64,000 nt of DNA from Escherichia phage BEU50, in the sequence record OM632671.1. The stretch is one strand, 5' to 3'. Below the pieces are notes generated by a model that saw only the letters and a list, made by a program, of their open reading frames with translations, had not been told where the DNA came from and searched no databases. Made by a program: the position numbers and the translations under genes. Each line of letters opens with the position of its first letter. Position 1 is the stretch's first letter. Below are positions 30,873 through 48,399 of this stretch, piece by piece.

Positions 30873-31292
30873 ATGAATATTGTAAATCTCTCTACAGGTG
30901 ATTATGTATATGTATCCGTTGCTTCTCGCTCTAAAGTTGCCGGGAAGTTGGTTGAAGTTCTTTCTGTGAGTGATCCGGTTTTTGGACGTAACGAAGTTAA
31001 AGTTCGTGACGCTGATGGTAACATTGGTTATGTCTCAAGCCAATTCATTGAACCAGAAGAAAAAGCGTTCAAATGGGGACTATGCAGATCAGTTTCTGTT
31101 GAAAAAGACCATGAATTCACTATTGCTGCGGCAACTGATGGAACACCGTGGAAAACTAAGCAAATCGCTGGATTTATTAGCGACCGTTGGGTAGAAGATG
31201 GTGTTAAGCTTTATAACATCGTTTTCGCTGGACAGTTCATGGTAGTTCCTGAATTCCAAATTAAAAAATATAGCCCAGCTGCTTTCGCATAA
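30873..31292 (+). CDS. Tandem paralogue 3 of the three-gene family
   Basis: ISDRWVEDGVKLYNIVFAGQFMVV; N-terminal ...SRSKVAGKLVEV... shared with paralogue 2. Confidence 0.45.
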   Translation: MNIVNLSTGDYVYVSVASRSKVAGKLVEVLSVSDPVFGRNEVKVRDADGNIGYVSSQFIEPEEKAFKWGLCRSVSVEKDHEFTIAAATDGTPWKTKQIAGFISDRWVEDGVKLYNIVFAGQFMVVPEFQIKKYSPAAFA

Positions 31293-31296
31293 AGTT

Positions 31297-31325
31297 GTTT
31301 ACTTCTCCTCTGGTTTTGGTATTAT
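31297..31325 (+). promoter_or_regulatory. Early promoter (GTTTAC, 17 nt, TATTAT)
   Basis: Upstream of the 31352 start. Confidence 0.35.
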
Positions 31326-31351
31326 AACCATATCAACCAGAGGAGAATAAT

Positions 31352-31876
31352 ATGTTAGTTTACCGCGTAGAACGTAGTTTTTGTACTCAACGTGAATCAT
31401 TACCAGGAATTGCTATCGAAGACGGTAAAGCCGTCAGAATTTGGGAAACCTCTTGGAATAAAGAACCTCGCTCACCATACGGTTGGTCGGGCACCGACAA
31501 CTCTGAAGAAACATGGGAGTTCCTTGATAAACATGGAATAATCTCAGGTAATTTCTACCATCACGGCGACAACTATAACGTCCCTAATCGTCCTACAGTA
31601 AATGAAGACAAACTCCTTGAACAAAATATCTTAAGATACTATAGAATTGAGCACACATTTGAATTGAGTGAAGATTGGGCTCAAGGGTTCTATTTTGGAT
31701 TTGAAAGTGTTGACGCGGTTTATGCATGGTTTGATGACCAGGTGGATGTTGAACTCTTGAAAGCTAAAGGATACTACATCGCGGTCTATGAAGCACCTGA
31801 TTTCATCCTCGGAAGTTGTCAATTAATGTTCAGACGTTCATTGGCAGAACAAGTTGATTTTATTTTGCTAAAATGA
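31352..31876 (+). CDS. Hypothetical protein (174 aa)
   Basis: ORF with RBS AGAGGAGAA. Confidence 0.4.
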   Translation: MLVYRVERSFCTQRESLPGIAIEDGKAVRIWETSWNKEPRSPYGWSGTDNSEETWEFLDKHGIISGNFYHHGDNYNVPNRPTVNEDKLLEQNILRYYRIEHTFELSEDWAQGFYFGFESVDAVYAWFDDQVDVELLKAKGYYIAVYEAPDFILGSCQLMFRRSLAEQVDFILLK

Positions 31877-31933
31877 TGTACAACAACTATGGTCTATGAT
31901 ACTATAGACCTATCAAAACAAGAGGAGAATATT

Positions 31934-32161
31934 ATGAAACGTCAAATCATTAAAAACGTAACTACTGATTCAAACATCGATGAGTTTGAAGATGTTCTGT
32001 TTAATCCTGATTTAGTTGTTGTACAGAAAAACTGGACCGAATTTTTATGCTACACTGAAGTGGTTTACGTTTACGAAAAACTCGGCGATGAAATGCCTAT
32101 CTATGGTATCTTCCGTGAAATCACTGAAAACGGTACAACTTATTGGAAGGAAACTTACTAA
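31934..32161 (+). CDS. Hypothetical protein (75 aa)
   Basis: ATG at 31934 preceded by AAGAGGAGAA and a promoter-like element at 31877..31905. Confidence 0.3.
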
Positions 32162-32574
32162 TGGCTAATAAATTCCGCGTTAACTCATGGTACCAATTTA
32201 AAGATAAACGTGCCCAAGAAGAGTTTATTAAAGACCACACTGATAATGGGATTTATGCACGACGTCTTGGCATGGAACCATTTAAAGTATTAGATGTTGA
32301 CCATCTTGGTCGTCCTACTAAAATTGTGACATCTACTGGCATGGTTGGATACGCAACAGGCGGTGATATCCTTGATGAAAACTTTATCTGGCTCTCCACG
32401 AATGAAGCAGAGTTCTTTGACGAAGTTGGAAATCCATATCAAGAGTCTAAAGAGCAAGATTCTGGTGAACTTGACGAATTGTCTGAATTTCCGGTGATGA
32501 CGATTACTATCGAAAATAACGACCAGGCATGGTCTTTGTATCAAATGTTGAAAGCTCACTTTAAGGAACAATAA
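32161..32574 (+). CDS. Hypothetical protein (137 aa)
   Basis: ATG overlapping upstream stop. Confidence 0.35.
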
Positions 32575-32753
32575 TGCCGTTATACGACTATAAATGTCAA
32601 TCTGAAGATTGTGGTCATGAATATGAAAAAATTAAAAGAATTTCTGAACGAGAAAACGATGTTTGCCCTGAATGTCATCGTCTGTCTACTCGTCGGGTTT
32701 CTGCTCCTAAACATGTGAACGGTGGTTTTTACGACTTACTTAAGAAGGGTTAA
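32574..32753 (+). CDS. Small zinc-ribbon protein (59 aa)
   Basis: CQSEDCGH ... CPECH (two CxxC pairs); ATG overlaps upstream stop; below ORF-track cutoff. Confidence 0.35.
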   Translation: MPLYDYKCQSEDCGHEYEKIKRISERENDVCPECHRLSTRRVSAPKHVNGGFYDLLKKG

Positions 32754-32755
32754 TT

Positions 32756-33181
32756 ATGGCTTTTAAAGGTTTTGAAGTTGGTAAGAAATATCGTATTATC
32801 AAAGGACAAGAAGATAATTTCTTGAGAATTCTTAATACGACTGGTAAACGTCTTAATACTAATCTGCATACTACTTTATTGTCCAAAGATTTTATTGTGG
32901 AAGAGATGATTGGTTACGGTGTTTCGATGATTGCTGTAGAAGCCGTAGGCGATTATGGCCGAACTATTCATAGTATGCAAGGTGATATTCTGCTTTATGG
33001 TGCAGAATTTAAATTCTTTGAAGAAGTTCCGGAACCAGATACAGCTGTCGATTTCAAAAAAGGCTCTATAGAATTTGTTGATGGTTCGGTGATCGTATCA
33101 GGCGATGTGGTCATTACAGTTAAAAGTGAACAAGGGCGTTTAGCTGCAATTGATGCACTTCAGAAAATTAAATTTAAATAA
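32756..33181 (+). CDS. Hypothetical protein (141 aa)
   Basis: ORF directly upstream of gene 39; same length as T4 goF, not verified. Confidence 0.35.
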   Translation: MAFKGFEVGKKYRIIKGQEDNFLRILNTTGKRLNTNLHTTLLSKDFIVEEMIGYGVSMIAVEAVGDYGRTIHSMQGDILLYGAEFKFFEEVPEPDTAVDFKKGSIEFVDGSVIVSGDVVITVKSEQGRLAAIDALQKIKFK

Positions 33182-33199
33182 GGGCTTAGGCCCTTTTTG
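33181..33199 (+). terminator. Terminator-like hairpin (AGGGC-UUAG-GCCCU followed by UUUU)
   Basis: Short GC stem plus T run immediately after the 32756..33181 ORF. Confidence 0.4.
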
Positions 33200-33244
33200 C
33201 TTTAGATTTTGGATGATAGAATACCTTCATAACGAGGAGACAAC

Positions 33245-35065
33245 ATGATTAAAAATGAAATTAAGGTATTGTCAGATGTAGAACATATTAAGAAACGTAG
33301 TGGTATGTATATTGGTTCTTCTGCTAAAGAAGCACATGAGCGTTTTTTGTTTGGTAAATATCAACAAGTTGAATATGTTCCTGGTCTGGTTAAATTAATC
33401 GATGAGATTATTGACAACTCGGTTGATGAAGCTATTCGTACATCATTTAAGTTTGCAAATAAAATTGATGTGCAAATTAAAAATAATCAAGTTTCGGTGG
33501 AAGATAACGGACGTGGTATTCCTCAAGGTTTAGTTACCGACCAAACGGGTGAACAAATTCCTGGGCCTGTAGCAGCCTGGACTATTCCAAAGGCTGGTGG
33601 TAACTTTGGTGATGACTCTGAACGCAAGACTGGTGGTATGAACGGTGTAGGGAGTAGTTTAACTAATATCTTCTCTACGTTGTTTACAGGCATCACGTCA
33701 GATGGCGAAAATGAAATCACTGTTAACTGTTCAAACGGAATGGAAAACAAATCATGGTCTTCTAAGAAATCTAAAGGTAAAGGCACTAAAGTAATCTTCA
33801 CTCCTGATTTCTCTTCATTTGAAGAGCATAATTTATCTCAAATTTATTTAGATATTACTTTAGACAGACTTCAAACATTGGCAGTCGTTTATCCTGATAT
33901 CAAGTTCACATTTAATGGTAAAAAGGTTGATGGTAATTTTAAACGATTTGCTAAACAATTTGGTGAAGATAACATCATTCAAGAAAATGATAAAGTCTCT
34001 ATAGCATTCACAACATCACCAGATGGCTTCCGTCATTTAACTTATGTGAATAACATCCATACTAAAAATGGTGGCCATCATGTTGAATGTGTAATGGATG
34101 ATATCTGTGAACATCTTTTGCCGGGTATTAAAAAGAAATATAAGGGTATTGAAGTCACTAAAGCTCGTGTTAAAGAATGCCTCACAATGTTGATGTTTAT
34201 TAGAGACATGAGCAACATGCGTTTTGATTCTCAGACTAAAGAACGTTTAACGTCAACGTATGGTGATATTCGTAATCATATCCAATTAGATGCTAAGAAA
34301 ATTGCTCAGGCACTTCTTAAAAACGAAGCCTTGATTATGCCTATTGTTGAAGCAGCATTAGCTCGTAAATTGGCAGCAGAAAAGGCTGCAGAAACTAAAG
34401 CAGCTAAAAAGGCGACTAAAGCTAAGGTTCATAAGCATATTAAAGCTAACCAATGTGGTAAAGATGCAGATACGACATTGTTTTTAACAGAAGGTGATTC
34501 GGCAATTGGTTATCTCATTGATGTTCGTGACCGTGAACTACACGGCGGATTCCCATTACGTGGTAAGGTGATGAATAGCTGGGGTATGTCATATGCTGAT
34601 ATGATGAAGAACAAAGAGCTCTTTGATATCTGTGCTATCACAGGTCTTATTCTTGGTGAAAAGGCAGAGAATACGAACTATCGTAATATTGCAATTATGA
34701 CCGATGCCGATCATGACGGTCTTGGAAGTATCTATCCAGCTTTGCTTGCTTTCTTTAGTAATTGGCCTGAATTGTTTGAACAAGGACGTATTCGCTTTGT
34801 TAAAACGCCTGTAATTATTGCACAAATTGGCAAAACTCAAAAATGGTTTTATACTGTAGCTGAGTATGAAGAAGCTAAAGATACACTGCCTAAGCATAGT
34901 ATTCGATACATCAAGGGATTGGGCTCACTTCAGCGAGATGAATATAAAGAAATGATTCAAAACCCTGTGTACGACGTAGTTAAACTTCCTGAAAATTGGA
35001 AAGAACTATTTGAAATGCTCATGGGTAACGACCCTGAACTCCGTAAAGATTGGATGCTAGGATAA
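33245..35065 (+). CDS. 39: DNA topoisomerase II ATPase subunit, fused gp60+gp39 form (606 aa)
   Basis: GyrB-like GHKL ATPase N-terminus (LVKLIDEIIDNSVDEA), TOPRIM (LTEGDSA ... DADHDG); continuous ORF of the length of the fused 60+39 form. Confidence 0.9.
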   Translation: MIKNEIKVLSDVEHIKKRSGMYIGSSAKEAHERFLFGKYQQVEYVPGLVKLIDEIIDNSVDEAIRTSFKFANKIDVQIKNNQVSVEDNGRGIPQGLVTDQTGEQIPGPVAAWTIPKAGGNFGDDSERKTGGMNGVGSSLTNIFSTLFTGITSDGENEITVNCSNGMENKSWSSKKSKGKGTKVIFTPDFSSFEEHNLSQIYLDITLDRLQTLAVVYPDIKFTFNGKKVDGNFKRFAKQFGEDNIIQENDKVSIAFTTSPDGFRHLTYVNNIHTKNGGHHVECVMDDICEHLLPGIKKKYKGIEVTKARVKECLTMLMFIRDMSNMRFDSQTKERLTSTYGDIRNHIQLDAKKIAQALLKNEALIMPIVEAALARKLAAEKAAETKAAKKATKAKVHKHIKANQCGKDADTTLFLTEGDSAIGYLIDVRDRELHGGFPLRGKVMNSWGMSYADMMKNKELFDICAITGLILGEKAENTNYRNIAIMTDADHDGLGSIYPALLAFFSNWPELFEQGRIRFVKTPVIIAQIGKTQKWFYTVAEYEEAKDTLPKHSIRYIKGLGSLQRDEYKEMIQNPVYDVVKLPENWKELFEMLMGNDPELRKDWMLG

Positions 35066-35862
35066 TGAATTATCGTAAAATTTATGATAAACTTATCGCT
35101 GCGGCTAAAAACCGCAGCATTATTCCTAATTATACTGAGACACATCATATATTGCCAAAATCTATGGGTGGGAGTAATGATAAATCAAATCTAGTTAAAA
35201 TGACCCCTAGAGAGCATTTTATCGCCCATTTATTGCTTTATAAAATTCATAAGAACCGTTCTATGCTTATGGCTATTAGAGCTTTTTACATGGGAGCTAG
35301 AAATTCTAGAGATTATGATTGGCTTAAACAAGAATTCTCTAAAGAGCACTCTAGATTTATGAAAGAATGGATTGCTAAAAACGGCAACCCATTTAAAGGT
35401 AAAAAACATACTAAAGCAACAAGAGAATTAATGTCACATATTGCTTCACAACGTATAGGCGAATTAAATCCATTTTATGGTAAAACTCATACGCAAGAAG
35501 CAATAGATAAAATAATACAGGCCAACAAGTTATCTTGGGAGAATGGGCGAAAAGCACCTGTAAAAACAAAAGAACACCAGGATAAAATAACTAAATCAAG
35601 AATGGAAACATTTAAAACAAAAGGATTTAAACCATACACTCCTAGGTCGGAAGAAACTAAAGCTAAGACTAGAGAGTTGTATAAATCTAAATATGAAAGA
35701 AGGCCTATAAGAATCACAAGTGTAAAAACAGGTGAAACTATTGATTTTAACTATCTTTATGAATTAAGAGAGTATTTAGATATAGGGTCTTCTAATATAT
35801 TGAAAGCATTAAATAATCCTAACAGAACCTGCAAAGGTTATAAAATGTGTTGGATGTCCTAA
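35065..35862 (+). CDS. HNH homing endonuclease (MobA-like position)
   Basis: ETHHILPKSMGGSNDKSNLVKMTPREHFIAH; N-terminus MNYRKIYDKL parallels the other two HNH paralogues; ATG overlaps gene 39 stop. Confidence 0.7.
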   Translation: MNYRKIYDKLIAAAKNRSIIPNYTETHHILPKSMGGSNDKSNLVKMTPREHFIAHLLLYKIHKNRSMLMAIRAFYMGARNSRDYDWLKQEFSKEHSRFMKEWIAKNGNPFKGKKHTKATRELMSHIASQRIGELNPFYGKTHTQEAIDKIIQANKLSWENGRKAPVKTKEHQDKITKSRMETFKTKGFKPYTPRSEETKAKTRELYKSKYERRPIRITSVKTGETIDFNYLYELREYLDIGSSNILKALNNPNRTCKGYKMCWMS

Positions 35863-35885
35863 GCTCCTTCGGGAGCTTCATTTTA
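35861..35885 (+). terminator. Terminator-like hairpin (AAGCUCC-UUCG-GGAGCUU)
   Basis: 7-bp stem with UUCG loop immediately after the HNH gene; weak U tract. Confidence 0.4.
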
Positions 35886-35904
35886 ATTTTAATAAGGCTT
35901 AATT

Positions 35905-37005
35905 ATGAAAGTTATGTTTATCCCATCTCGTGCAGTCCCATTTAATCCTGACCGTGTACAAGGTGGTCTTGAAGCGGTTCATTTGAACGTGTTGAAATAT
36001 TTAGTTTCTATCGGTGCCGATATTGATTATATCGGCTTTGATAATGACACGTTTGGTGACTGGAAAGTTACACACCATCCTGTTGGTCATCTGACTAAAT
36101 TCAGTCTAGGTATGAGTTATACTATGGCTCGTAAGATTGTTGAACTAGCCGGCATCCATGAATACGATTTTGTTGTTACTATGGAACCGACTAAACTAAC
36201 CGTTCAGGCAATTAAAGACGCAGGTCTCTCTAAAGTTCATAAGAATTTTATGGCAACACCATTTGAACCAGTATCTCGTGGCATTGTTCAAATTTGGGAC
36301 CAGACTATTCAAATTCATAAGAATGGCGGTAAGAGTTATGCTCCTACTAAAGCCTTCCGTGAATTTGAACGCAAATATTGTTATATGACTTCAGGTCTGA
36401 CTGACAAAATCGATTATGATTATTGGCGAGCAAATCCGTTGTTTGAAGCCGAAGATTATCCGGTTATTTGTTTGACTGAAAAGCCAGAAGTTCTCCCGGC
36501 AACTGATTTGATTATTAGTGCTCAACGTTATGACACTAAGATGCGTCGCACTGATGTTGCTCTTGAAGCAATTAAAGCACTAGGCGAAAATGGTGTAGGA
36601 TACTGTCCTAGTAAATGGGCACCACCAGCTAAATATCCTGTTATTATTGATGCTCCACACAGTGAAATCATGGAACGTCTTAAAACAGCTAAAGCACTTA
36701 TTAATACGTGTCCTGACACAGGTACGGTAGAGAATAGTTCTATTGAAGCCATCTCTAAAGGTGTCCCTGTAATCCAGTTAGTTTTTAAGGATTATCCTCA
36801 TGCGACATTTGAATACGACCCAGATACTGTGCGTGTAGAAATTGATTCCTCTACTCCTAAGAAAGAAGTAGTTGCGCTTTACACAAAAGCTGTATTAGAA
36901 TTCACTGACACATACGAAGCTCGAGTTAAACGTGCTGAAGCAGTATGGAAGAAGTATAATCGAGATGCAGTTGTTGCGATGTGGGATAAAATCTTCACAG
37001 CGTAA
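35905..37005 (+). CDS. GT-B fold glycosyltransferase (candidate DNA hydroxymethylcytosine sugar transferase)
   Basis: C-terminal GT-B/GT4-like motif TGTVENSSIEAISKGVPVIQ (compare EGFG..LEAMA.G.PVI); located between topoisomerase and rIIA. Confidence 0.6.
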   Translation: MKVMFIPSRAVPFNPDRVQGGLEAVHLNVLKYLVSIGADIDYIGFDNDTFGDWKVTHHPVGHLTKFSLGMSYTMARKIVELAGIHEYDFVVTMEPTKLTVQAIKDAGLSKVHKNFMATPFEPVSRGIVQIWDQTIQIHKNGGKSYAPTKAFREFERKYCYMTSGLTDKIDYDYWRANPLFEAEDYPVICLTEKPEVLPATDLIISAQRYDTKMRRTDVALEAIKALGENGVGYCPSKWAPPAKYPVIIDAPHSEIMERLKTAKALINTCPDTGTVENSSIEAISKGVPVIQLVFKDYPHATFEYDPDTVRVEIDSSTPKKEVVALYTKAVLEFTDTYEARVKRAEAVWKKYNRDAVVAMWDKIFTA

Positions 37006-37020
37006 ATCCTGAATAGCCTG

Positions 37021-37071
37021 AGGCACTATTACACATAAGATGATAGATTATATGGTCTTTAGTAATAGTGC
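37021..37071. repeat. Inverted repeat GGCACTATTAC / GTAATAGTGCC separated by 29 nt
   Basis: 11-bp perfect inverted repeat in the intergenic region after the glycosyltransferase gene. Confidence 0.5.
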
Positions 37072-37097
37072 CCTAGGAATCTACTGAAGAGAATATT

Positions 37098-37298
37098 ATG
37101 AGAACATATAACGTGGACTTGGAACTTTTTGATAAAGCAGTGCTCCGGGAATTCCGGCTTATCCAAAGATTTTTTGATATCGAATCAGCAGAGTCCTTTA
37201 AAGAACGCTTTAAAGAAATTCGATATAAAATACAAACCGATACAGCTACTAAAGAAGAACTTCTTGAAGTAGCAGAAATTTTTAAACGTAACTTGTGA
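37098..37298 (+). CDS. Small protein (66 aa) at the rIIA.1 position
   Basis: ORF with RBS GAAGAGAA. Confidence 0.3.
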   Translation: MRTYNVDLELFDKAVLREFRLIQRFFDIESAESFKERFKEIRYKIQTDTATKEELLEVAEIFKRNL

Positions 37299-37310
37299 TG
37301 AGAGAAAAAC

Positions 37311-39368
37311 ATGATTATCGAAACGGCTAAAGAAACGATTATTGGTTCTGGTGGTAAGAGCACAGCATTCACTATTCAAGGCAATAGCAAAGTTTATAAG
37401 ATTTTGTCTAATGACCTTTATACAAACAAAGAATTGGCTTGTGTACGTGAATTAATCACAAACTGTATCGATGGACAAATTCTTAATGGTTGCACTGATA
37501 AGTTTATTGTTCAGGCTCCAGGTCGTTTAGACCCACGTTTTGTAGTTCGAGACTTTGGTCCTGGTATGAGTGATTTCACCATTCGAGGTAATGACGAAGA
37601 GCCAGGAATCTATAACTCATATTTTGCTTCAACTAAAACATCGAGTAATGATTTCATTGGTGGATTCGGACTCGGCTCTAAAGCTCCATTAGCATATACT
37701 GATACGTTTAACATTACTTCTTATCATAATGGTGAAGTTCGTGGTTATGTAATTTATCAAGATGACAGTGGTCCACAAATTAAGCCAACCTTTGTAGATA
37801 AGATGGGCCCTGATGACCGTACGGGTGTAGAAGTAGTTGTGCCTGTTAACCCGGAAGATTTTGAAAAGTTCGCATCTGAAATTGCGTATGTTATGCGTCC
37901 TCTCGGCGATATTGCAGAAGTTCGTGGTGTTAAAGATATCAAATACTTCCCGGAATTCGATGATGTTTATTTAGCCAAGGAAGCTCCATGGGGTGAACGT
38001 GGTAATATCATGGCTGTTTATGGTGGTATTGTATATCCAATCGGAAGTGTTATTAAAGAACAAACATGGATGATGACGCGATGCACTACAGCTTATATCA
38101 AATTCCCTATGGGTGAACTAGATGTAGCCCCGTCTCGTGAAGCATTGTCATTTGATAAACGTACAGTAGCAAATATTCATAAACGTGTTGCAGAAATTGA
38201 TGCAAAATTATTTGCTGAAGATTCTAAGAAATGGATTGATTGTGAATATCCACGTCATGTATTCCGTGAAATCGATTCTCTTGGTTACTCTGCTCGTAAA
38301 TACATGGAAAAAGCCGGTTCTAATATTGAATCACTGAAATATTCTAAAGAACAACTAACTTATTCTGAGTTGTACAAACGTTTTAAAATGGGACCTGAAT
38401 GGTGCAACCTTGGCGTTGTATATGATATCGTTTCAGATCCACGACTTCGTCGTATTCGTGAAAGCGGAAGCTCGTCTGCAACTATTTCAATTAATAGCCT
38501 GCTAGGTATTAGTCGTAAGCATATTGATATTGTTATTGACGATGTGAAAGGCCGCGTACCAATGATGCGTGCTCTGAACGATGCTTTGACTTCCACCGAT
38601 GCATCAACACTCGTTGATAAGGTTCCTTCCGGACGGGGTAGTAGCGTATTATTCATTAACCCGGAAGATGAAGTTGCAATGAAACTTCTGGAACGATTAA
38701 AGGTTATTTTCGCTGGTGATAGCCTTAAATTTTATAAGACCTCTGAAATTCTTGCATTAGTTAAACCATGGATTGAAGTTAAAGAACGTTCATCGCAGCC
38801 TCGTCCTAAATCCCCAAGTGCTCATCGGTTCTTTAAGAATGAAAACGATGTTTGGGTATCAGAAGATCTCTTTATTCCGGCCGGTAAAGCTGATGAGATT
38901 CAAGGTTATGTTGTAATTCGTAATCGTTCTAACGCTGAATGTCTTGACGCAGATAAAGGTTGGTTGAACTATGATTCTAATTTCTTGACTCGTATTGCTG
39001 ATTTGTCAGGTATTAAAGAGTTCACTGTAGTCCGTCCACAGATTGCTAAGAAAGTTCGTAAACTTGGTGAAGTAGAATGCTTGTTCGAAAAATCAATTAA
39101 TGACTATATTACGCTAATTGATAAAGTGGATTATGATGAGTATGTATCACCAAGTCGTAGAGCACAGCCTTATTTGAATCATATTACTCGTAACGAAGAG
39201 CTTAACTTCCTTAGTAAGTATTTTAGCTCTAAGAACAAAGAAATCAGTAAAGACTTTGCAAAACTCTCAACAGTAAATAATCGCTGGGGATGGAATCGAT
39301 TCGCAGGTGCTGATAACAGAGACCTGAACAGGAAGTTAGAATTGTGCTTAAAGAGGACTCTTTTGTAG
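37311..39368 (+). CDS. rIIA: rIIA-like protein (GHKL ATPase fold), possibly C-terminally truncated at a breakpoint
   Basis: N-terminal MIIETAKET...[15 protein letters not shown] (GHKL motif I-like), GGFGLGSK (G-loop); 685 aa versus about 725 aa recalled for T4 rIIA; no rIIB follows. Confidence 0.55.
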
Positions 39369-39619
39369 ACCCAGAAATTTTCTACGGTTTGCGTGCCCGT
39401 GAAATTGAAATTGAGCCACAACCTACAGTTAAAATTGAAGGTGGTCAACACCTGAACGTTAACGTTCTGCGTCGTGAAACTCTGGAAGATGCAGTTAAGC
39501 ATCCGGAAAAATATCCGCAATTGACTATCCGTGTATCCGGTTATGCAGTTCGCTTTAACTCTCTGACTCCGGAACAGCAGCGCGACGTTATCGCTCGTAC
39601 CTTTACCGAGAGTTTGTAA
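39344..39619 (+). CDS. GrcA/YfiD-like autonomous glycyl-radical domain (3' portion of gene; N-terminal part not present upstream)
   Basis: C-terminal about 60 aa ...[60 protein letters not shown] is near-identical to E. coli GrcA as I recall it, including the glycyl-radical motif RVSGYAV; host-like GC-rich codons. Confidence 0.6.
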
Positions 39620-39840
39620 TGGCAAAGATAATTATTGAAGGTTCTGAAGATGTGCTAAATGCTTTCGCCGAGTGGTTTAGTAATTCAGGTGAACAACAAT
39701 TTAATGAAGCGTGGAATATGGGTGATATTGATGGAATTTATCCTACGACAGAAATTTCTGTTCAGGGATATGGCATTCATGAACCTATTCGTTTAGTTGA
39801 ATACGATTTATGTACTGGCGAGGAAGTCAAATATGATTGA
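39619..39840 (+). CDS. Hypothetical protein (73 aa)
   Basis: ATG overlapping upstream stop. Confidence 0.3.
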   Translation: MAKIIIEGSEDVLNAFAEWFSNSGEQQFNEAWNMGDIDGIYPTTEISVQGYGIHEPIRLVEYDLCTGEEVKYD

Positions 39841-40099
39841 AGATATTAAGGGTTATAAACCACATACCGACGAAAAAATCGGTAAAGTAAATGCTATTAA
39901 AGACGCTGAAGTTCGTTTAGGACTTATCTTTGATGCTTTATACGATGAATTTTGGGAAGCATTTGATAGCTGTGAAGATGATGAACTCGCGAAGAATTAC
40001 GCCGAAAGCCTCGATCAGTTAACTATTGCTAAAACGAAACTCAAAGAAGCAAGTATGTGGGCTTGCCGTGCTGTGTTCCAACCAGAGGAAAAATACTAA
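39833..40099 (+). CDS. Hypothetical protein (88 aa)
   Basis: ATGA start/stop overlap with previous ORF. Confidence 0.3.
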
Positions 40100-40377
40100 T
40101 GGCTCAATTAAGCGCAGGGTTTGGTTATGAGTATTATACTGCCCCTCGTCGTGTATCTGTTGCTCCTAAGAAAATTCAAAGTCTTGATGATTTCCAGGAA
40201 GTAGTCCGTAACGCTTTCCAGGACTATGCACGCTATCTTAAAGAAGATTCACAGGACTGTCTCGAAGAAGATGAAATTGCTTACTATACGCAGCGTCTTG
40301 AACAGCTCAAAAATCTACATGAGGTTCGTGCCGAAGTTTCAAAGTCTATGAATAAATTGATTAGATTTAAAGAATAA
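40099..40377 (+). CDS. Hypothetical protein (92 aa)
   Basis: ATG overlapping upstream stop. Confidence 0.3.
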
Positions 40378-40379
40378 CT

Positions 40380-40409
40380 GTTTACTTTTCCTCTTGACTG
40401 TGGTATAAT
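40380..40409 (+). promoter_or_regulatory. Early promoter (GTTTAC, 18 nt, TATAAT)
   Basis: Upstream of regB. Confidence 0.4.
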
Positions 40410-40436
40410 TTTTCTATCAGTTAAGAGGAGAATAAC

Positions 40437-40898
40437 ATGACTATCAACACAGAAGTTTTTATCCGTCGAAATAAGCTTCGTCGTCACTTTGAGTCGGAGT
40501 TTCGTCAAATTAACAATGAGATTCGTGAGGCATCAAAAGCAGCAGGGGTCTCATCGTTTCATCTAAAATATTCTCAGCATCTTCTTGATCGTGCAATTCA
40601 ACGGGAGATTGATGAGACATATGTTTTTGAATTATTCCACAAAATAAAAGACCATGTTTTAGAAGTTAATGAATTCCTGAGTATGCCTCCGCGTCCTGAC
40701 ATTGATGAGGATTTTATTGATGGGGTTGAATACCGTCCTGGACGTTTAGAAATCACAGATGGAAATCTTTGGCTTGGATTTACAGTTTGTAAACCTAATG
40801 CGAAGTTCAAAGACCCGTCGCTTCAATGCAGGATGGCAATTATCAATAGTCGTCGTTTACCAGGAAAGGCTTCTAAAGCAGTAATTAAAACTCAATGA
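40437..40898 (+). CDS. regB: Endoribonuclease RegB-like (153 aa)
   Basis: Length and sequence fit T4 RegB as I recall it; position upstream of tk. Confidence 0.6.
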   Translation: MTINTEVFIRRNKLRRHFESEFRQINNEIREASKAAGVSSFHLKYSQHLLDRAIQREIDETYVFELFHKIKDHVLEVNEFLSMPPRPDIDEDFIDGVEYRPGRLEITDGNLWLGFTVCKPNAKFKDPSLQCRMAIINSRRLPGKASKAVIKTQ

Positions 40899-40905
40899 GG
40901 TAAGC

Positions 40906-41451
40906 ATGAGAAAAGCACTACTCGCTGGTCTATTGGCCATTTCAATGATGGCACATAGCTCCGAGCATACTTTCAGTAATGTCCAACTCGATAACATGCG
41001 TTACGCGTATCAATTCGGGGAACAATTTTCTAAGGATGGAAAATATAAAACACACAAAAACATCCACAAGAGCGGATTGGGTCATATAATGGCTGCTATT
41101 TTGTGGCAAGAAAGCTCTGCCGGAGTTAATTTAAAATCTAAACCAAAGCATCACGCCTACGGAATGTTCCAAAATTATTTGCCTACTATGCGAGCGAGAG
41201 TTAAGGAACTTGGTTATAATATGACCGATGCTGAAATAAAAAGAATGTTGAATAAACGATCCAATTCAGCTTCCTGGGCGTACATTGAACTTTCTTATTG
41301 GTTAAATATACATAAGGGCGATATAAGAAAAGCAATATCCTCTTATAATTCGGGATGGAATGTTAAAGCAGGTTCTAAATATGCTTCTGAAGTCCTAGAA
41401 AAGGCTAATTACCTTAAAAATAATAAACTTTTGGAAATAGTAAATGACTAA
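40906..41451 (+). CDS. Secreted lytic transglycosylase-like protein (SLT-like motifs)
   Basis: Signal peptide MRKALLAGLLAISMMAHS; ILWQESSAG ... AYGMFQ ... SYNSGW resemble SLT family E-S / GLMQ / AYNAG motifs. Confidence 0.45.
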   Translation: MRKALLAGLLAISMMAHSSEHTFSNVQLDNMRYAYQFGEQFSKDGKYKTHKNIHKSGLGHIMAAILWQESSAGVNLKSKPKHHAYGMFQNYLPTMRARVKELGYNMTDAEIKRMLNKRSNSASWAYIELSYWLNIHKGDIRKAISSYNSGWNVKAGSKYASEVLEKANYLKNNKLLEIVND

Positions 41452-41785
41452 AATTTTGGTTTTATGTATAGGATTAATTTCATTTTCTGCGTTAGCAGAT
41501 ACATCATATACTGAAATTAGAGAGTATGTAAACCGTACTGCAGCGGATTATTGCGGGAAAAATAAAGCATGCCAAGCTGAATTTGCGCAGAAATTAATAT
41601 ATGCATATAAAGACGGAGAAAGAGATAAATCAAGCAGATACAAAAATGATACATTGTTAAAACGATATGCTAAAAAGTGGAATACCTTAGAATGTTCAGT
41701 TGCGGAGGAGAAAGATAAAGCCGCTTGTCATTCAATGGTTGACCGTTTAGTAGATTCTTATAATCGAGGATTGAGTACTAGATGA
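41444..41785 (+). CDS. Secreted small protein with four Cys (113 aa)
   Basis: Signal peptide MTKILVLCIGLISFSALA. Confidence 0.35.
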   Translation: MTKILVLCIGLISFSALADTSYTEIREYVNRTAADYCGKNKACQAEFAQKLIYAYKDGERDKSSRYKNDTLLKRYAKKWNTLECSVAEEKDKAACHSMVDRLVDSYNRGLSTR

Positions 41786-42261
41786 TTGTAAAATATATCA
41801 AGGGCGATATTGTCGCCCTATTTCTTCAAGGTAATATTATTGCGCACGGGTGCAATTGCTTCCACACAATGGGCTCTGGCGTAGCAGGTCAATTAGCAAG
41901 AGCCTATCCCAAAATTTTAGAAATAGATAAAACCACTACCGAGTACGGTTCTCGTGATAAATTAGGCGATATGTCTATTGTTTTTAAACATAGTCCTACG
42001 GGATTTGGTATATGCTATAACCTGTATACACAATACGAACCGGGTCCTAATCTTGATTATGGTGCTTTAGTAAACTGCATGATAGAATTAAATCTACAGG
42101 CAGAAACCCTTTTGTTTAAACCAGTAATTTACATTCCACGCATAGGTTGCGGTATTGCTGGTGGTGATTGGGATAAGGTTTCTAAATTAATCGACATGTT
42201 TACTCCTGATATTGATTTAATAGTGGTGGATTATGAAAGTACATTACCCGCATCCGTTTGA
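41782..42261 (+). CDS. Macro-domain-like protein (ADP-ribose binding/processing)
   Basis: GDIVALFLQGNIIAHGCNCFHTMGSGVAGQLARAYP resembles the macro-domain N-terminal signature (GDIT...VNAAN..L.GGGV.GAI); later PRIGCGIAGGDWDKV. Confidence 0.5.
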   Translation: MIVKYIKGDIVALFLQGNIIAHGCNCFHTMGSGVAGQLARAYPKILEIDKTTTEYGSRDKLGDMSIVFKHSPTGFGICYNLYTQYEPGPNLDYGALVNCMIELNLQAETLLFKPVIYIPRIGCGIAGGDWDKVSKLIDMFTPDIDLIVVDYESTLPASV

Positions 42262-43009
42262 TCCTAAAAACAAAGTGGAAATTATTCGTCAATGGGAACG
42301 CATTTGCCGTACTAAATGCCCAATTAATAGTCCACATGATGTAGATAAAGACTATATTGGAACATTCGTTGAATATACCTTTATTGATAGGAAAGGTCGT
42401 AAACAACATGTAGAAGAATATTGTTTAAAGGTTACATGGTTATGAGCCAAACTAGTATTCTTAAAAATGCCCATTGTGAAAAGTGTAAGTGGCCGATTGT
42501 TTTTGCTTTATGTAATGATGAAATGGCTTGTGATTTCGATTATTGGTGCTATTGTTCTAATAAAGGATGCATCAATCATAAAGGTGAAGGATTTTATTCA
42601 GGATTTTATCCTTATCCTGATTTCGTTAAAGAAGGTAAACCGAAATGAATAGTTTTGAGTTACAATATGAAGTGTTACGTGAGCTTGATAATTTAATTGA
42701 ACTCGCTGTCAATAAAGGTTTTGCCATTGGAATCGGTCAAAAAGATACTGGTCATTTAACTATGGAAATATTTAAGCAAAAGCGAATTATTTTAAAACTC
42801 CTGGAAATTAATATATGAGTCTGAGTAAAGAATAAAAAGATAAATTGTTTGAGCTTATCCATGAACTTCTAGATGAGCATGCAGAAGCAAACACCTTTTA
42901 TGATGAATACGGCCCGCTATCTCCCGAACAGCAAGAAGAATTTGCTGATCGGTTTGATAAGAAAGAAAACGAATTAATAGCTTATGTGAATATGCTTTAA
43001 GAAGGTGAT

Positions 43010-43591
43010 ATGGCGAGTTTAATTTTTACTTACGCAGCAATGAATGCTGGAAAATCTGCTTCTCTTTTGACTGCTGCACATAATTATAAAGAACGCGGAA
43101 TGAGTGTATTAGTTCTTAAGCCTGCTATTGATACTCGCGATTCTGTCTGTGAAGTCGTTTCTCGCATTGGAATTAAGCAGGAAGCGAATATTATTACAGA
43201 TGATATGGATATTTTCGAGTTCTATAAATGGGCTGAAGCACAAAAAGATATTCATTGCGTATTTGTAGATGAAGCTCAGTTTTTAAAAACTGAACAGGTG
43301 CATCAATTAAGTCGAATTGTTGATACATATAATGTTCCTGTTATGGCTTATGGATTAAGGACTGATTTCGCTGGAAAATTGTTTGAAGGTTCTAAAGAAC
43401 TTTTAGCGATTGCAGATAAACTTATTGAACTAAAGGCAGTTTGTCATTGCGGCAAAAAAGCGATTATGACAGCTCGATTAATGGAAGATGGAACACCAGT
43501 TAAAGAAGGTAATCAAATCTGTATTGGTGATGAAATTTATGTTTCTTTGTGTAGAAAACATTGGAACGAATTAACTAAAAAGCTCGGTTAG
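43010..43591 (+). CDS. tk: Thymidine kinase
   Basis: Walker A AAMNAGKSASLL, DEAQF, C-terminal zinc-binding CHCG...C..H; 193 aa. Confidence 0.9.
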   Translation: MASLIFTYAAMNAGKSASLLTAAHNYKERGMSVLVLKPAIDTRDSVCEVVSRIGIKQEANIITDDMDIFEFYKWAEAQKDIHCVFVDEAQFLKTEQVHQLSRIVDTYNVPVMAYGLRTDFAGKLFEGSKELLAIADKLIELKAVCHCGKKAIMTARLMEDGTPVKEGNQICIGDEIYVSLCRKHWNELTKKLG

Positions 43592-43600
43592 TGCAAAAGT

Positions 43601-43608
43601 TATAAATA
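43601..43608 (+). promoter_or_regulatory. Late promoter TATAAATA
   Basis: Exact octamer 26 nt upstream of the 43634 ATG. Confidence 0.4.
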
Positions 43609-43633
43609 GGTTTATCTAACTAAAGGGGTATAT

Positions 43634-43846
43634 ATGCTACAATTAACTGAAAAGCAACTTCGCAATCTTACTGTTCTTCAATTAGATGAAATTCGTAGGG
43701 AAGTTGGAAATATCATTTCAGCTTTGCGTCGAGAAGTATCACTCAACCAATCTCCGGCAGACTATACTAGATTGCGAAATTTTGAAAAATACCTTGATAA
43801 AGTTAAGGCCGTGCATCGGCATAAAGTAAATACAGGACAAAAATGA
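43634..43846 (+). CDS. Hypothetical protein (70 aa)
   Basis: ORF with RBS AAAGGGG. Confidence 0.3.
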
Positions 43847-43858
43847 TAGGAGGCCTTT

Positions 43859-44152
43859 ATGGCCTTAAAAGCAACGGCACTATTTGCCATGCTAGGATTA
43901 GCGTTTGCTTTATCTCCATCGATTGAAGCGAATGTCGATCCTCATTTTGATAAATTTATGGAATCTGGTATTAGACACGTTTATATGCTTTTTGAAAATA
44001 AAAGCGTAGAATCATCTGAACAGTTCTATAGTTTTATGCGAACGACTTATAAAAATGACCCGTGCTCTTCTGATTTTGAATGTATAGAGCGAGGCGCGGA
44101 GATGGCACAATCATACGCTAGAATTATGAACATTAAATTGGAGACTGAATGA
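43859..44152 (+). CDS. Secreted hypothetical protein (97 aa)
   Basis: Signal peptide MALKATALFAMLGLAFALSPSIEA. Confidence 0.35.
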   Translation: MALKATALFAMLGLAFALSPSIEANVDPHFDKFMESGIRHVYMLFENKSVESSEQFYSFMRTTYKNDPCSSDFECIERGAEMAQSYARIMNIKLETE

Positions 44153-44535
44153 AATTCAGCGACTTTTCACAAAGTGGAAAACCTTCAAAGGCAGATGAAT
44201 ACTTAGGTTTATTAATGGCTGCACAAGCTTATTTTCATTCTGCGCATTTTGAAACTAAAAGTTATGCTAGACACAAAGCATACGATTTTATTTTCTCCGA
44301 GTTGCCAGATTTGATTGATAAATTTGGTGAGCAATATTTGGGGTATTCTGGTAGAAAATACACACCTTCAATTCCAGATGCTAGTAAACTTCCTACCGAC
44401 ACAATTAAAATGATTGATCGCATACTAGACCAATCTAACAGCATTTATAAAGAAATGCCTCCAGCCATTCAAAGCACGATAGATGATATCACTGGGATGT
44501 TTTATCAGAGTAAATATCTTCTTTCCCTCGAATAA
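44149..44535 (+). CDS. Hypothetical protein (128 aa)
   Basis: ORF with ATGA overlap. Confidence 0.35.
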
Positions 44536-44539
44536 CGTT

Positions 44540-44563
44540 AGTCTCCTTCGGGAGACTTTTTTC
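44540..44563 (+). terminator. Intrinsic terminator (AGUCUCC-UUCG-GGAGACU followed by U6)
   Basis: 7-bp stem, UUCG loop, T6. Confidence 0.7.
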
Positions 44564-44572
44564 ATTTTACCG

Positions 44573-44602
44573 GTTTACTTTCCATTTGAGCTGTGATACT
44601 AT
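44573..44602 (+). promoter_or_regulatory. Early promoter (GTTTAC, 18 nt, TACTAT)
   Basis: Immediately after the terminator, upstream of the 44631 ATG. Confidence 0.4.
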
Positions 44603-44630
44603 ACAACCATCGGATAAAGAGGAGAACATC

Positions 44631-44819
44631 ATGAAAATTGAAGCACTTAATCAAGAAGGAAATATCTACGTCATCATTAATGGTGATTTTTTCGTCGACA
44701 TGGATGAAGTTACCAGTGAAGAACTTGTAGAACTTCTTAAGAAACGTTATAATATGTGTGATGAAGTTGCAACTCACATGGCGTGTGCAATATTCTCTCT
44801 TTCATATGTGGTGGAATAA
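44631..44819 (+). CDS. Hypothetical protein (62 aa)
   Basis: ATG preceded by AAGAGGAGAA. Confidence 0.3.
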
Positions 44820-45022
44820 TGAAAACTGAAAAGCAAGCGGATAAAATTAAGGAATTAGTGGCTTCAATTCGTAAAGCAGATGAAGAGCTGATTGACTTTG
44901 CTTGGTATTCATCGGGTATTTCGAATAAAGGCATTAAAGACTTTGAAACTAAAGTTGATAATGCTTTAGAAGCGTTAGATATGTTTCTTGATGAAATTAT
45001 CGATCATAATACGAGAGTTTAA
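44819..45022 (+). CDS. Hypothetical protein (67 aa), starts MKTEKQ within a 26-nt repeat
   Basis: ATG embedded in GGTGGAATAATGAAAACTGAAAAGCA. Confidence 0.3.
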   Translation: MKTEKQADKIKELVASIRKADEELIDFAWYSSGISNKGIKDFETKVDNALEALDMFLDEIIDHNTRV

Positions 45023-45024
45023 GT

Positions 45025-45219
45025 ATGCTAACACGTGAACAGTTTGAAAAAATCATTAAATTAGCACGTGATGTTGAAATAGATTCATATCAATTAGCAG
45101 TTGAGCATTGTGAAGGATATTCATACGATGGTATAGAATCAGCTAAAAGGGATTTGGATAAATCTAAAGCTAAGTTAGTCCAATATCTTGAAATGATTAG
45201 GTGGAATAATGAAAACTGA
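45025..45219 (+). CDS. Hypothetical protein (64 aa)
   Basis: ORF following 44819..45022. Confidence 0.3.
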   Translation: MLTREQFEKIIKLARDVEIDSYQLAVEHCEGYSYDGIESAKRDLDKSKAKLVQYLEMIRWNNEN

Positions 45220-45382
45220 AAAGCAGATGTTTTTAATGAAACTAATTGAAGAATATGCTAATGCAGTTTCTGACTATGAGCGTTCTTCTCGGGAAAGAGG
45301 TACAGCTTTCGCCAAAGAAGAAATGAAAATCATGGTTGATGCTCACACAAAGCTTCAGAATTTTATTGAAAACAACATTTAA
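45209..45382 (+). CDS. Hypothetical protein (57 aa), starts MKTEKQ within the second copy of the 26-nt repeat
   Basis: ATG embedded in second copy of GGTGGAATAATGAAAACTGAAAAGCA. Confidence 0.3.
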   Translation: MKTEKQMFLMKLIEEYANAVSDYERSSRERGTAFAKEEMKIMVDAHTKLQNFIENNI

Positions 45383-45870
45383 CGGTTTACAAGTTGGCAA
45401 GGTTATGGTATAGTAATCTTGTCAACTGTCAAGGAGAAGAGAATGAAAGTTTTGTTTGTTGTGTATGTAATGATTCAATATAATTACCCAATGTTTACTT
45501 ATAATCTGGTGAACAACATTATTGATATTATTCAAAGGAGTATGTAATTGTGAGTGAGTCGAAGAGAATCAATATGAAACGATTAGTATTAGAAGTTAGT
45601 CCGCTTTTTGGTGAATTGGCTATAGAAAAAGTAAATAACATGTATCGTTTGACGCAAGAAGACGATATGCTATATTTTACGCCTAGTGAAATCATTCATT
45701 TAACCCAAATTGAATATCCTTATACTGATAAAATAGTAAGTATCAATGATGAGCACAAAATTCATTGCTCGTTTGATTGAAGTTGAAGCCCAAATTGCAG
45801 AACACACCAAATTGTTAAAAGCTCTTAATGCAAAAGCAAATGGTTTACGTAATGCTATTGAGGTATTGAA

Positions 45871-46185
45871 ATGAAAAAGCGTCTATTAGAAGACATTGCA
45901 GCTTCAAGTAATTCCAGTTTAATTAAAATTATTATGGCCGGTGAAGAAGACGATCTGGAAATGCGTGGAAAGATTTATGGTTGTGATGATTATAGCAGCC
46001 CTATTAATTGGGATTCTGTAATGGTCATGGTTGAACGTCGCGAAAGGGCTTCTAAAAACGTTCCTAATTGCCCTGAATGTGGAACTGAACAGGTGCAATT
46101 AGTCCATTGGCAGACTAATAATCTTCGTTATAAATGTCGCCATTGTAAACACCGATTTGACCGAGAAGAAAATGACAAAGCGTAA
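45871..46185 (+). CDS. Small zinc-ribbon protein (104 aa)
   Basis: CPECG ... CRHCKH. Confidence 0.35.
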
Positions 46186-46415
46186 AGAATATATGGAGAC
46201 CGCCGAAAAGGCAGTCCGTGAATTAGCAATAGCTTATTATAATGAACACGGTAAATTTCCTGATAGATACAGCGTGCTTAAATCTGCTTTAACTCGTTCA
46301 TATAAAAATATGCTATCAGAAGTAAGTGATATTATATACAAACATAAAGAACAAACGGGCCAAAGTCTTGATTACGACGAGACTTTTAAACAAGTACTAG
46401 GAATTAAGGAATAAT

Positions 46416-46679
46416 ATGTTTAAAGTATATGGTTATGATAGCAACATCCATAAATGTGTGTATTGCGATAATGCAAAACGTCTTTTGACCGTGAAGAAAC
46501 AGCCGTTTGAATTTATCAACATTATGCCGGAAAAAGGTGTTTTTGATGATGAGAAAATCGCTGAGCTTCTGACTAAACTAGGTCGTGATACTCAAATCGG
46601 CTTAACAATGCCTCAGGTATTTGCTCCTGATGGAAGTCATATTGGTGGATTTGACCAATTGCGGGAATACTTTAAATGA
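46416..46679 (+). CDS. nrdC: Glutaredoxin/thioredoxin NrdC
   Basis: 87 aa; active-site CVYC; matches T4 NrdC from memory. Confidence 0.8.
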   Translation: MFKVYGYDSNIHKCVYCDNAKRLLTVKKQPFEFINIMPEKGVFDDEKIAELLTKLGRDTQIGLTMPQVFAPDGSHIGGFDQLREYFK

Positions 46680-47168
46680 TTCTCGAAGGAACTGATTATA
46701 TCCATGATTACCGCGGAAGCGCGGTATATGTAGGTGATGAAGTTGCAGTTTACTACGGGTATGGAACTTTGATGACAGCCAAGGTTATTCAAATTAAAAA
46801 TAATCGTGCTAAACTCGAAGTTTATTATTCTAACGGCGAAAAGTCTATTTCTAAGTGGAAATACGGCGATTGTATGGTCAAACTGGGGTAAATATGATTT
46901 ACGATATTAGTGCAGCAAGAGCTCCATCAATGGTTGCTATTCCAGCTGAAGAATTAGATCGTCTTCATAAAATTGAAGAACTTCTGTGGGAAATTGAATC
47001 TGATTTGCCATCAGGATTAGAATCCTGGATTGATTATGAAGAACTTAATAAGCTTCGGGGTTAAACCCTGGTGGGCGGCTAGATGGGAAACTGTAGAGCC
47101 AGAGCCGGAAGAACCGGTTTACACTGATGAAGAAACAGTATATAATGAACCAACGATAAATGACTTAA

Positions 47169-47672
47169 TTGATATGGAGATGGGACATGATTACAGTAGA
47201 TAAGTGGTTTAGAATTAATCGTGTTGATACAGGGCTATGTAATTACTGGCCGGAACTTAGTGCAGGTACTGTCTTTAAAGTTCGTGAACTTGCAAAAGAA
47301 TGTGAAGATGATATAGAACCTGATACTGGAATTATTGAAATTGAACTTTCTGATGGAAAGATTATTAACATCTATGATAAGCCAATTACGTATTGGTGCT
47401 TGTGGAATACTGAATCCGTTGAAAATGGCGAAATTGAAGAAGTTGTAGAGAGAACTAGCCAAGATGCTCAGAAGCCTAAAGCCGCTTTTCAAGGTGAACG
47501 TATTTCATACGCATTAGCTAAATTAGCTGCACAAGAAAATAACGATGGTTATGAAGGAAATTTAATGCAAGCTGCCGCAGAGTACATTGAATGGCTTGAA
47601 ACTCAAATTTCTTTTTCTGACCAAATGATTCGGCAATATAAGCGATTGCATCAAATGTTTTACAATACTTGA
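47169..47672 (+). CDS. Hypothetical protein (about 160 aa)
   Basis: ORF; its C-terminus (MIRQYKRLHQMFYNT) is repeated downstream. Confidence 0.35.
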   Translation: MIWRWDMITVDKWFRINRVDTGLCNYWPELSAGTVFKVRELAKECEDDIEPDTGIIEIELSDGKIINIYDKPITYWCLWNTESVENGEIEEVVERTSQDAQKPKAAFQGERISYALAKLAAQENNDGYEGNLMQAAAEYIEWLETQISFSDQMIRQYKRLHQMFYNT

Positions 47673-47925
47673 AAAAACTCAAAATTCTTTTTCTGACAAG
47701 GCATTTTAATGAAAACCGAATTGGTTTATACTGAAAAGTTAAATGGCGGTAAGGTTTGGAAACTTTTTATTAAAGGACATTCTACGGACCCTCATATGAC
47801 CACTTGCGTAGGAACCTATTCTCGTCCTACTAAAAAGATGATTCGACAGTATAAACGATTGCATCGAATGTTTTACAATACTTAAATAATAAATACCCTT
47901 ATCTATTTAAGGTAAGGGTTTTATT

Positions 47926-48399
47926 ATGTTATTGACTGGCAAATTATACAAAGAAGAAAAACAAAAATTTTATAATGTACAAAACGGTAAATGCTTAATT
48001 TGCCAACGAGAACTAAATCCTGATGTTCAAGCTAATCACCTTGACCATGACCATGAATTAAATGGACCAAAAGCAGGAAAGGTACGTGGATTGCTTTGTA
48101 ATCTCTGCAATGCTGCAGAAGGTCAAATGAAGCACAAATTTAATCGTTCTGGCTTAAAGGGTCAAGGTGTTGATTATCTTGAATGGTTAGAAAATTTACT
48201 TACTTATTTAAAATCCGATTACACCCAAAATAATATTCACCCTAACTTTGTTGGAGATAAATCAAAGGAATTTTCTCGTTTAGGAAAAGAGGAAATGATG
48301 GCCGAGATGCTTCAAAGTGGATTTGAATATAATGAATCTGACACCAAAACACAATTAATAGCTTCATTTAAGAAGCAGCTTAGAAAGAGTTTAAAATGA
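47926..48399 (+). CDS. 49: Endonuclease VII (gp49) Holliday junction resolvase
   Basis: 157 aa; GKCLICQREL...HLDHDHELNGPKAGKVRGLLCNLCN matches T4 endo VII from memory. Confidence 0.9.
   Translation: MLLTGKLYKEEKQKFYNVQNGKCLICQRELNPDVQANHLDHDHELNGPKAGKVRGLLCNLCNAAEGQMKHKFNRSGLKGQGVDYLEWLENLLTYLKSDYTQNNIHPNFVGDKSKEFSRLGKEEMMAEMLQSGFEYNESDTKTQLIASFKKQLRKSLK

Follow-up and report, generated by a model that had tools for sequence, protein, structure and literature searches.

An Escherichia-like grcA tract in a T4-type vs.6 gene that is cut at a probably artefactual join in the sequence of Escherichia phage BEU50

The locus

The window, i.e., the whole stretch of 64,000 nucleotides from Escherichia phage BEU50 that was analysed (record OM632671.1), contains at 39344-39619 a small open reading frame (ORF) of the glycyl-radical type. 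The features at this position are as follows (a prime marks a gene that is truncated at a join):

37311-39368, plus strand: rIIA' of Mosigvirus type, last 178 nt missing; continues into vs.6 DNA in another frame, up to the stop codon TAG at 39366-39368
39330-39346, plus strand: putative start of vs.6', consisting of AGGAAG (39330-39335), an 8-nt spacer and GTG (39344-39346); the sole plausible translation start
39344-39619, plus strand: vs.6', GrcA-like ORF, GTG to TAA (39617-39619), 91 codons, equivalent to codons 31-120 of T4-type vs.6 (Y06I); ATG absent
39346-39348, no strand: join J1; Mosigvirus-like rIIA ends at 39346 and T4-like vs.6 begins at 39348, which is its nt 92; no microhomology in pairwise alignments with a20 and T4T
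39348-39434, plus strand: phage-type 5' part of vs.6', 87/89 nt as in T4 vs.6, about 50% identical to grcA, GC content 38-39%; not host-like DNA
39435-39619, plus strand: host-derived tract, i.e., grcA DNA of E. coli with the codons of the structured domain (GrcA residues ~67-127) and the stop codon
39539-39541, plus strand: GGT codon of the radical glycine in the motif RVSGYAV; corresponds to Gly102 in GrcA and Gly734 in PflB and is residue 66 in the 91-aa ORF
39619-39840, plus strand: vs.5 ortholog; as in T4, its ATG shares bases with the stop codon of vs.6 (TAATG)

The location of the ORF between the rIIA' stop and the vs.5 start indicates that it encodes a stand-alone small protein and not the tail of a large glycyl-radical enzyme. 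The first-pass annotation had proposed a spare part of the GrcA/YfiD type, and the profile searches and the search against sequences of known structures agreed with this assignment. The ORF matched Pfam Gly_radical (PF01228; E = 1.5e-18), TIGR04365 (autonomous glycyl radical cofactor GrcA; 146.8 bits, profile positions 46-126 of 126), PHROG 1209 (163 bits, profile positions 31-121 of 121) and the sequence of the E. coli GrcA NMR structure (PDB 6OWR; E = 5.9e-40). The NCBIfam equivalog cut-off for GrcA of 170 bits was reached neither by the window ORF nor by full-length T4 Vs.6 (153.3 bits), because the N-terminal half is divergent or missing. The near-identity to E. coli GrcA that had been noted for the last 60 or so residues turned out to be complete, as all of the last 60 residues, including RVSGYAV, are those of GrcA 68-127. 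The radical glycine, whose absence had been named as evidence against the assignment, is present. The N-terminal region is incomplete, with some 29-30 residues ahead of the structured domain versus 60-67 in GrcA. The start that had been placed at 39369 is out of frame; the reading frame opens at the GTG at 39344, and T4-homologous DNA begins at 39348.

Starting at 39348, the window shows 97.5% identity to T4 DNA and, over 39348-40700, 97-98% DNA identity to hundreds of Tequatrovirus genomes, in which the locus is annotated as vs.6, as autonomous glycyl radical cofactor (GrcA) or as pyruvate formate-lyase. The predicted product equals residues 32-120 of T4 Vs.6 save for a single substitution (H46R, T4 numbering), and the downstream order vs.5, vs.4, vs.3, regB is kept, collinear with T4T 63817 to 60700. 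The remark that a T4 homologue has been studied was therefore correct as far as the characterization of Y06I is concerned but understated the relationship: the ORF is not merely similar to vs.6 but is the ortholog of that very gene in the same downstream context. Thus, the gene is already known, and this copy adds no new biology.

The intact vs.6 gene comprises 363 nt (120 aa) in T4T, KMB40, a20 and Maryam. It was listed in 2006 as conserved in six of six T4-like genomes and as matching Gly_radical (PMC1524935). By tblastn, homologues of vs.6 were identified in 1,591 phage records, among them Straboviridae, T5-like phages and jumbo phages, and in other phages the GrcA-like proteins are likewise built of two parts, the C-terminal domain being conserved. 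In Morganella phage vB_Mm5 (locus L093, 37-690), the GrcA-like domain is annotated at the C-terminus of a 217-aa ORF with an N-terminal extension of about 90 residues, which represents either a fusion or a gene call that reaches too far. The vs.4 ortholog (39833-40099, plus strand), located two genes beyond vs.6 in the downstream direction, matched the Pfam Acb2/Tad1 hairpin family (E = 1.4e-19), a family of anti-CBASS cyclic-nucleotide sponges.

Three blunt joins within the window

Comparison with reference genomes divided the window into four pieces:

1-39346: piece 1, collinear with Mosigvirus a20 (99.1% identity over 1-25000 and 98.2% over 30000-39346, gene 39 to rIIA)
39348-50206: piece 2, T4T 63817 down to 44341, vs.6' to nrdD'
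50206-57726: piece 3, T4T 156689 down to 149151, with 37', 36, 35, 34, rnh, dsbA, 33 and 59'
57727 onward: piece 4, T4T 143095 downward, with nrdA.2', nrdA and nrdB

The pieces of about 39.3, 10.9, 7.5 and 6.3 kb make up the 64-kb window, and pieces 2-4 are Tequatrovirus-like and occur in non-syntenic order. The three joins, at 39347 (rIIA'/vs.6'), 50206 (nrdD'/37') and 57726 (59'/nrdA.2'), are blunt, lie in mid-gene and fall within 25 kb, and neither microhomology nor common restriction sites were found at any of the three. Essential genes, namely 32, 37, 38, 52, t, motA and asiA, are missing at the joins. This arrangement most likely arose when contigs from a mixed sample of a Mosigvirus and a Tequatrovirus were concatenated or misassembled. 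The first-pass annotation had made a genuine observation on the cofactor gene but had missed both its truncation at J1 and the composite nature of the window. Within piece 1, the large subunit of the topoisomerase is encoded at 33245-35862 (plus strand) as a protein of the fused 39+60 type with 606 aa, directly followed by a 270-aa ORF for a NUMOD3 homing endonuclease, as in a20.

At J1, bases 1-91 of the 363-nt vs.6 gene (about 30 codons) are absent, and with them the ATG, the native ribosome-binding site and, further upstream, the neighbouring genes vs.7 and vs.8. In their place stands the Mosigvirus-type rIIA, the match of which stops 178 nt short of the end of the 2,214-nt rIIA gene of a20 and covers positions 1-672 of 725 in the PHROG 612 RIIA profile. 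In KMB40, T4T, a20 and Maryam, in contrast to the window, vs.6 is intact with vs.7 and vs.8 upstream; Maryam, with a complete 363-nt gene, is the closest relative. Two further candidate products at this position were rejected. An rIIA-vs.6 fusion protein would require a common frame, but the two frames differ and rIIA' terminates at 39366-39368, and an antisense ORF (39179-39625, 148 aa) spans the join and does not represent a conserved gene. Over 38600-40200, promoter-like sequences and terminators did not occur in excess over shuffled sequence.

The AGGAAG motif and the GTG that precede the remaining vs.6 codons consist entirely of rIIA sequence and therefore form a fortuitous start. As both are located exactly at the join, a real recombinant could still produce a protein of 91 aa. 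A genuinely recombined or rearranged T-even genome, in which an N-terminally shortened spare part of 91 aa is made from the rIIA-created GTG at 39344, accordingly has to be weighed against an artefact. The in-frame GTG with AGGAAG 8 nt upstream and the retention of the complete structured domain together with 29 residues of the N-terminal region are compatible with such a genome, and vs.6' would then be the counterpart in nature of truncYfiD (YfiD residues 61-127), a laboratory construct that still supports pyruvate formate-lyase (PFL) activity (PMC8683613). Like truncYfiD (Andorfer et al., 2021), the window ORF, if translated, would be an N-terminally shortened protein with the whole structured domain; the differences are some 29 additional phage-type residues at its N-terminus and its origin from a probably artefactual join instead of from design.

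The joins themselves argue against a real rearrangement. Three blunt mid-gene joins within 25 kb would have removed essential genes (32, 37, 38, motA and asiA) and linked the DNA of two genera. Illegitimate recombination in T4 normally proceeds via short homologies, and these are absent here. In addition, the join was present in no other sequence searched: a sequence spanning J1 was absent from 50,697 phage records (megablast and blastn), no exact 34-mer or 23-mer across J1 occurred in viral, genome or metagenome contig collections, and the exact junction proteins (the 685-aa rIIA', nrdD' and the 91-aa ORF) are not on record. We therefore regard a real recombinant as unlikely, with roughly one chance in eight. 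If J1 is an artefact, as we favour, the truncation of vs.6 is not biological and the real phage would possess an ordinary 120-aa protein. Accordingly, the truncated ORFs at the joins (rIIA', vs.6', nrdD', 37' and 59') should not be taken as biology, and as the window is composite, inferences from gene neighbourhood, such as a link to nrdD, are unsafe.

The structured domain is encoded by Escherichia-like DNA

A nucleotide alignment to host grcA, which had been proposed as a check, gave a clear result: in 5,426 of 5,426 complete E. coli genomes, grcA is 96.2% identical to the 185 nt at 39435-39619 (blastn, E = 9e-79). Of the final 180 nt of coding sequence, 173 match E. coli grcA in the window, 176 in Mosigvirus a20 and 178 in T4. 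Every difference is synonymous, so that among the last 60 codons two differ from E. coli in T4, four in a20 and seven in the window, the window tract thus having five more synonymous differences than that of T4. The edges of the tract are sharp. When T4 and E. coli were compared in 30-nt bins counted back from the stop codon, identity was 93, 100, 100, 100, 100 and 100%, then 53, 50 and 40%; T4 hence carries pure E. coli grcA sequence up to the last two codons. At the 5' edge, exactly 180 nt ahead of the stop codon, identity falls to about 50%, and at the stop codon the homology to E. coli likewise ends. The value of about 50% for the 5' part of vs.6' is no better than that of unrelated sequence. 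The same mosaic of a phage-type 5' part and a 180-nt E. coli-type 3' part is present in T4 vs.6.

The host-like composition of the tract that the first-pass annotation had stated was confirmed in part. GC content is 47.0% over the 185 nt versus a window mean of 36.6% (sd 3.8), and only 0.14% of 185-nt windows are as GC-rich. Codons that are rare in the phage are used repeatedly, namely CTG four times (phage fraction 0.09), CCG three times (0.17) and CGC twice (0.09). However, a CAI-type index calculated against the phage's own ORFs placed the tract merely at the 11th percentile and not as a strong outlier, so that the codon-usage signal is modest; T4-preferred codons such as CGT, GGT, GTT and GAA coincide with codons of highly expressed E. 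coli genes. GC content and the use of CTG, CCG and CGC are the clearer host signals. In several places, the window copy has shifted toward phage codons (CAG to CAA, CTG to TTG and ACC to ACT).

As the window is a questionable composite in other respects, contamination, i.e., E. coli reads assembled into the phage contig, could in principle account for a host-like tract. This is refuted by the presence of the same mosaic in the T4 reference as well as in over 500 independent T-even genomes and by synonymous changes of the phage lineage in the window copy that are not seen in E. coli. Moreover, the E. coli homology is bounded precisely by the EGGQ codons and the stop codon, beyond which phage DNA continues in frame on either side. 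We consider contamination practically excluded.

Compared with E. coli GrcA (YfiD, 127 aa, 6OWR), the window gene thus shares the last 60 residues, radical glycine included, and 96% of the DNA in this part, whereas in its N-terminal region the DNA is unrelated and the protein only weakly similar. Furthermore, the window gene is phage-encoded and lacks the ung-grcA chromosomal context.

Timing and recurrence of the exchange

The protein sequence of GrcA is extremely conserved, with 97-100% identity over the last 60 residues across Enterobacterales. An ancient capture that was kept unchanged by strong purifying selection, acting also on codons, would be in line with this conservation and would make a recent exchange with Escherichia unnecessary. 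The nucleotide comparisons do not fit such a scenario. In Klebsiella phage 150040 (Slopekvirus) and in Enterobacter phage EC-F1 (Pseudotevenvirus), the 60 encoded residues are those of E. coli, yet 29 of the 60 codons differ, all synonymously; selection at the protein level therefore does not explain the DNA identity of the tract. Between bacteria, the same 60 codons differ at 13 positions for E. coli and Citrobacter and at 26 for E. coli and Salmonella (24 synonymous, two not), and over the 180 nt the difference from E. coli ranges from 7% (Citrobacter) to 16-17% (Salmonella, Yersinia), corresponding to 83-93% identity between E. coli and other genera. The phage tracts, in turn, are specifically nearest to Escherichia grcA (96-99% nucleotide identity), with 90-92% for the next genus. 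Between Mosigvirus a20 and the Tequatrovirus-like part of the window, the flanks of vs.6 share only 71-79% DNA identity, but the tract is 98% identical between a20 and T4, indicating that the exchange was either repeated or spread between phages. The ancient-capture explanation is largely refuted by the synonymous-codon comparison and appears highly improbable.

The pattern instead suggests that the tract was exchanged with grcA of the Escherichia lineage after the split of Escherichia and Citrobacter, and sequence patterns likewise point to the probable direction and mechanism, the simplest candidate for the latter being gene conversion or homologous recombination inside the conserved core. 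The 5' half of vs.6 is an old form, specific to phages, of the N-terminal region that is disordered in GrcA. The recent host origin that had been claimed for the gene hence applies to the 3' 180 nt, with two to seven synonymous differences in 60 codons, but not to the 5' part with its identity of about 50% to grcA.

The near-identity to E. coli is not a general property of phage GrcA-like genes. The 3' tracts of other groups (Jiaodavirus, Slopekvirus, Pseudotevenvirus, Krischvirus, Tequintavirus, Asteriusvirus and T4-like Aeromonas phages) are 66-86% identical to E. coli grcA, and even in E. coli-infecting phages of the Krischvirus, T5-like and Asteriusvirus groups the value is 66-75%. The near-identity is therefore specific to the Tequatrovirus and Mosigvirus lineages.

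A different donor is indicated for Jiaodavirus. The copies of Klebsiella phage Roth20 and Salmonella phage PSE-D1 carry the LLDAVEH signature of Salmonella/Klebsiella-type GrcA. When 80 species representatives were compared as donors, the 180-nt tract was 88-91% identical to grcA of Enterobacteriaceae other than E. coli, with 87-100% in the five 30-nt bins that precede the final bin and 90-93% identity to Salmonella/Klebsiella-type donors across most of its length. As in T4, the boundary lies 180 nt ahead of the stop codon, where identity drops to about 45%. These sequence comparisons suggest a second, independent host-derived replacement. We consider it somewhat more probable than the contrary that the structured domain of T-even vs.6 has repeatedly been overwritten by grcA of the current host via homologous recombination while the N-terminal half was inherited vertically. 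One such event would have involved Escherichia (Tequatrovirus, Mosigvirus and the window) and another a Salmonella/Klebsiella-type donor (Jiaodavirus).

Putative function and partner enzyme

T4 Y06I and E. coli YfiD are described as the two experimentally validated spare parts for oxygen-cleaved PFL (Wagner et al., 2001, as cited in PMC8683613). Radical-bearing PflB is cleaved by oxygen at Gly734, the cleaved enzyme is bound by YfiD or Y06I, and the glycyl radical is then installed by the activase PflA (PMC8683613). The missing strand, the radical loop and the helix are supplied by the C-terminal domain (YfiD 61-127), which is the structured domain; residues 1-60 of YfiD are disordered and aid binding (PMC8683613). 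The host-identical tract of vs.6 would coincide with this structured domain, and the binding of oxygen-cleaved PflB and the receipt of the radical from PflA are functions of the domain that the window ORF shares with E. coli GrcA.

By analogy with the T4 and E. coli proteins, host PflA would place the radical on the glycine of RVSGYAV (codon 39539-39541), and the C-terminal domain of about 60 residues would replace the piece that PFL loses upon cleavage at Gly734. In this way, the supply of acetyl-CoA and formate by fermentation in the infected cell may be kept running under microaerobic conditions. In YfiD, loss of residues 1-60 lowered radical installation four-fold and rendered binding too weak to measure, while the complex, once formed, was catalytically normal (PMC8683613). 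By the same analogy, the 91-aa ORF, if made at all, might be a weakened but potentially competent spare part.

An alternative partner is the phage's own glycyl-radical enzyme NrdD in place of host PFL, as the first-pass annotation had found the proximity of the gene to nrdD notable. The window contains a single nrdD sequence and no nrdG:

49208-50293, plus strand: nrdD', large subunit of the anaerobic ribonucleotide reductase, cut at the second join (J2, 50206); the C-terminal glycyl-radical part is missing

The match of nrdD' to Pfam NRDD covers positions 1-293 of 562. As nrdD' lies 9.6 kb downstream of vs.6' and is cut by the second join, the proximity is not meaningful, and in T4 the two genes are 17 kb apart. 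The nrdD' sequence is intron-less, i.e., the T4 group I intron with I-TevII (T4T 44802-45836) is absent, and a 273-aa ORF for a NUMOD3 homing endonuclease (48396-49217, plus strand) lies between gene 49 and nrdD, extending over the start of the latter.

A role of vs.6 in nucleotide metabolism was proposed by Nolan et al. (2006; PMC1524935). In jumbo Escherichia phage UE-S1 (locus L097, 298-657), a GrcA-like gene is located directly 3' of nrdD, and in Aeromonas phage AsFcp_4 (locus L098, 301-684) between nrdG and nrdC/nrdH. These arrangements indicate a link to anaerobic ribonucleotide reductase genes in other phage groups but not in those of T4 type. For the window ORF, the domain itself speaks against NrdD as the partner, as it does not resemble NrdD but is identical to that of GrcA and shares 70-80% identity with the PflB C-terminus. 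In addition, T4 Y06I is reported to reconstitute PFL (Wagner et al., 2001, via PMC8683613), and the distance between the genes in T4 and the remote, truncated nrdD' of the window lend no support. NrdD is thus a very unlikely partner, and host PFL remains the preferred one.

Implications for T-even phages

Taken together, we are confident, though not certain, that the ORF represents the final three-quarters (nt 92-363) of vs.6, a Tevenvirinae cofactor gene of the GrcA/YfiD type with a 3' tract from Escherichia, which is cut at a probably artefactual join. A published description of the nucleotide-level mosaic or of gene conversion in vs.6 was not found in the searchable literature; a BLAST search readily reveals the mosaic, and workers in the field may already be aware of it. 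What is mildly new is limited to the gene conversion from host to phage, which is confined to one domain and apparently recurrent.

The sharp mosaic provides a clean, quantifiable case of recent DNA flow from host to phage that is confined to a conserved domain. If the exchange is recurrent, the tract may be a possible marker of host association in T-even phages. If repeated overwriting holds true, host-templated gene conversion would keep an auxiliary metabolic gene of the phage matched to its enzyme partners in the host.
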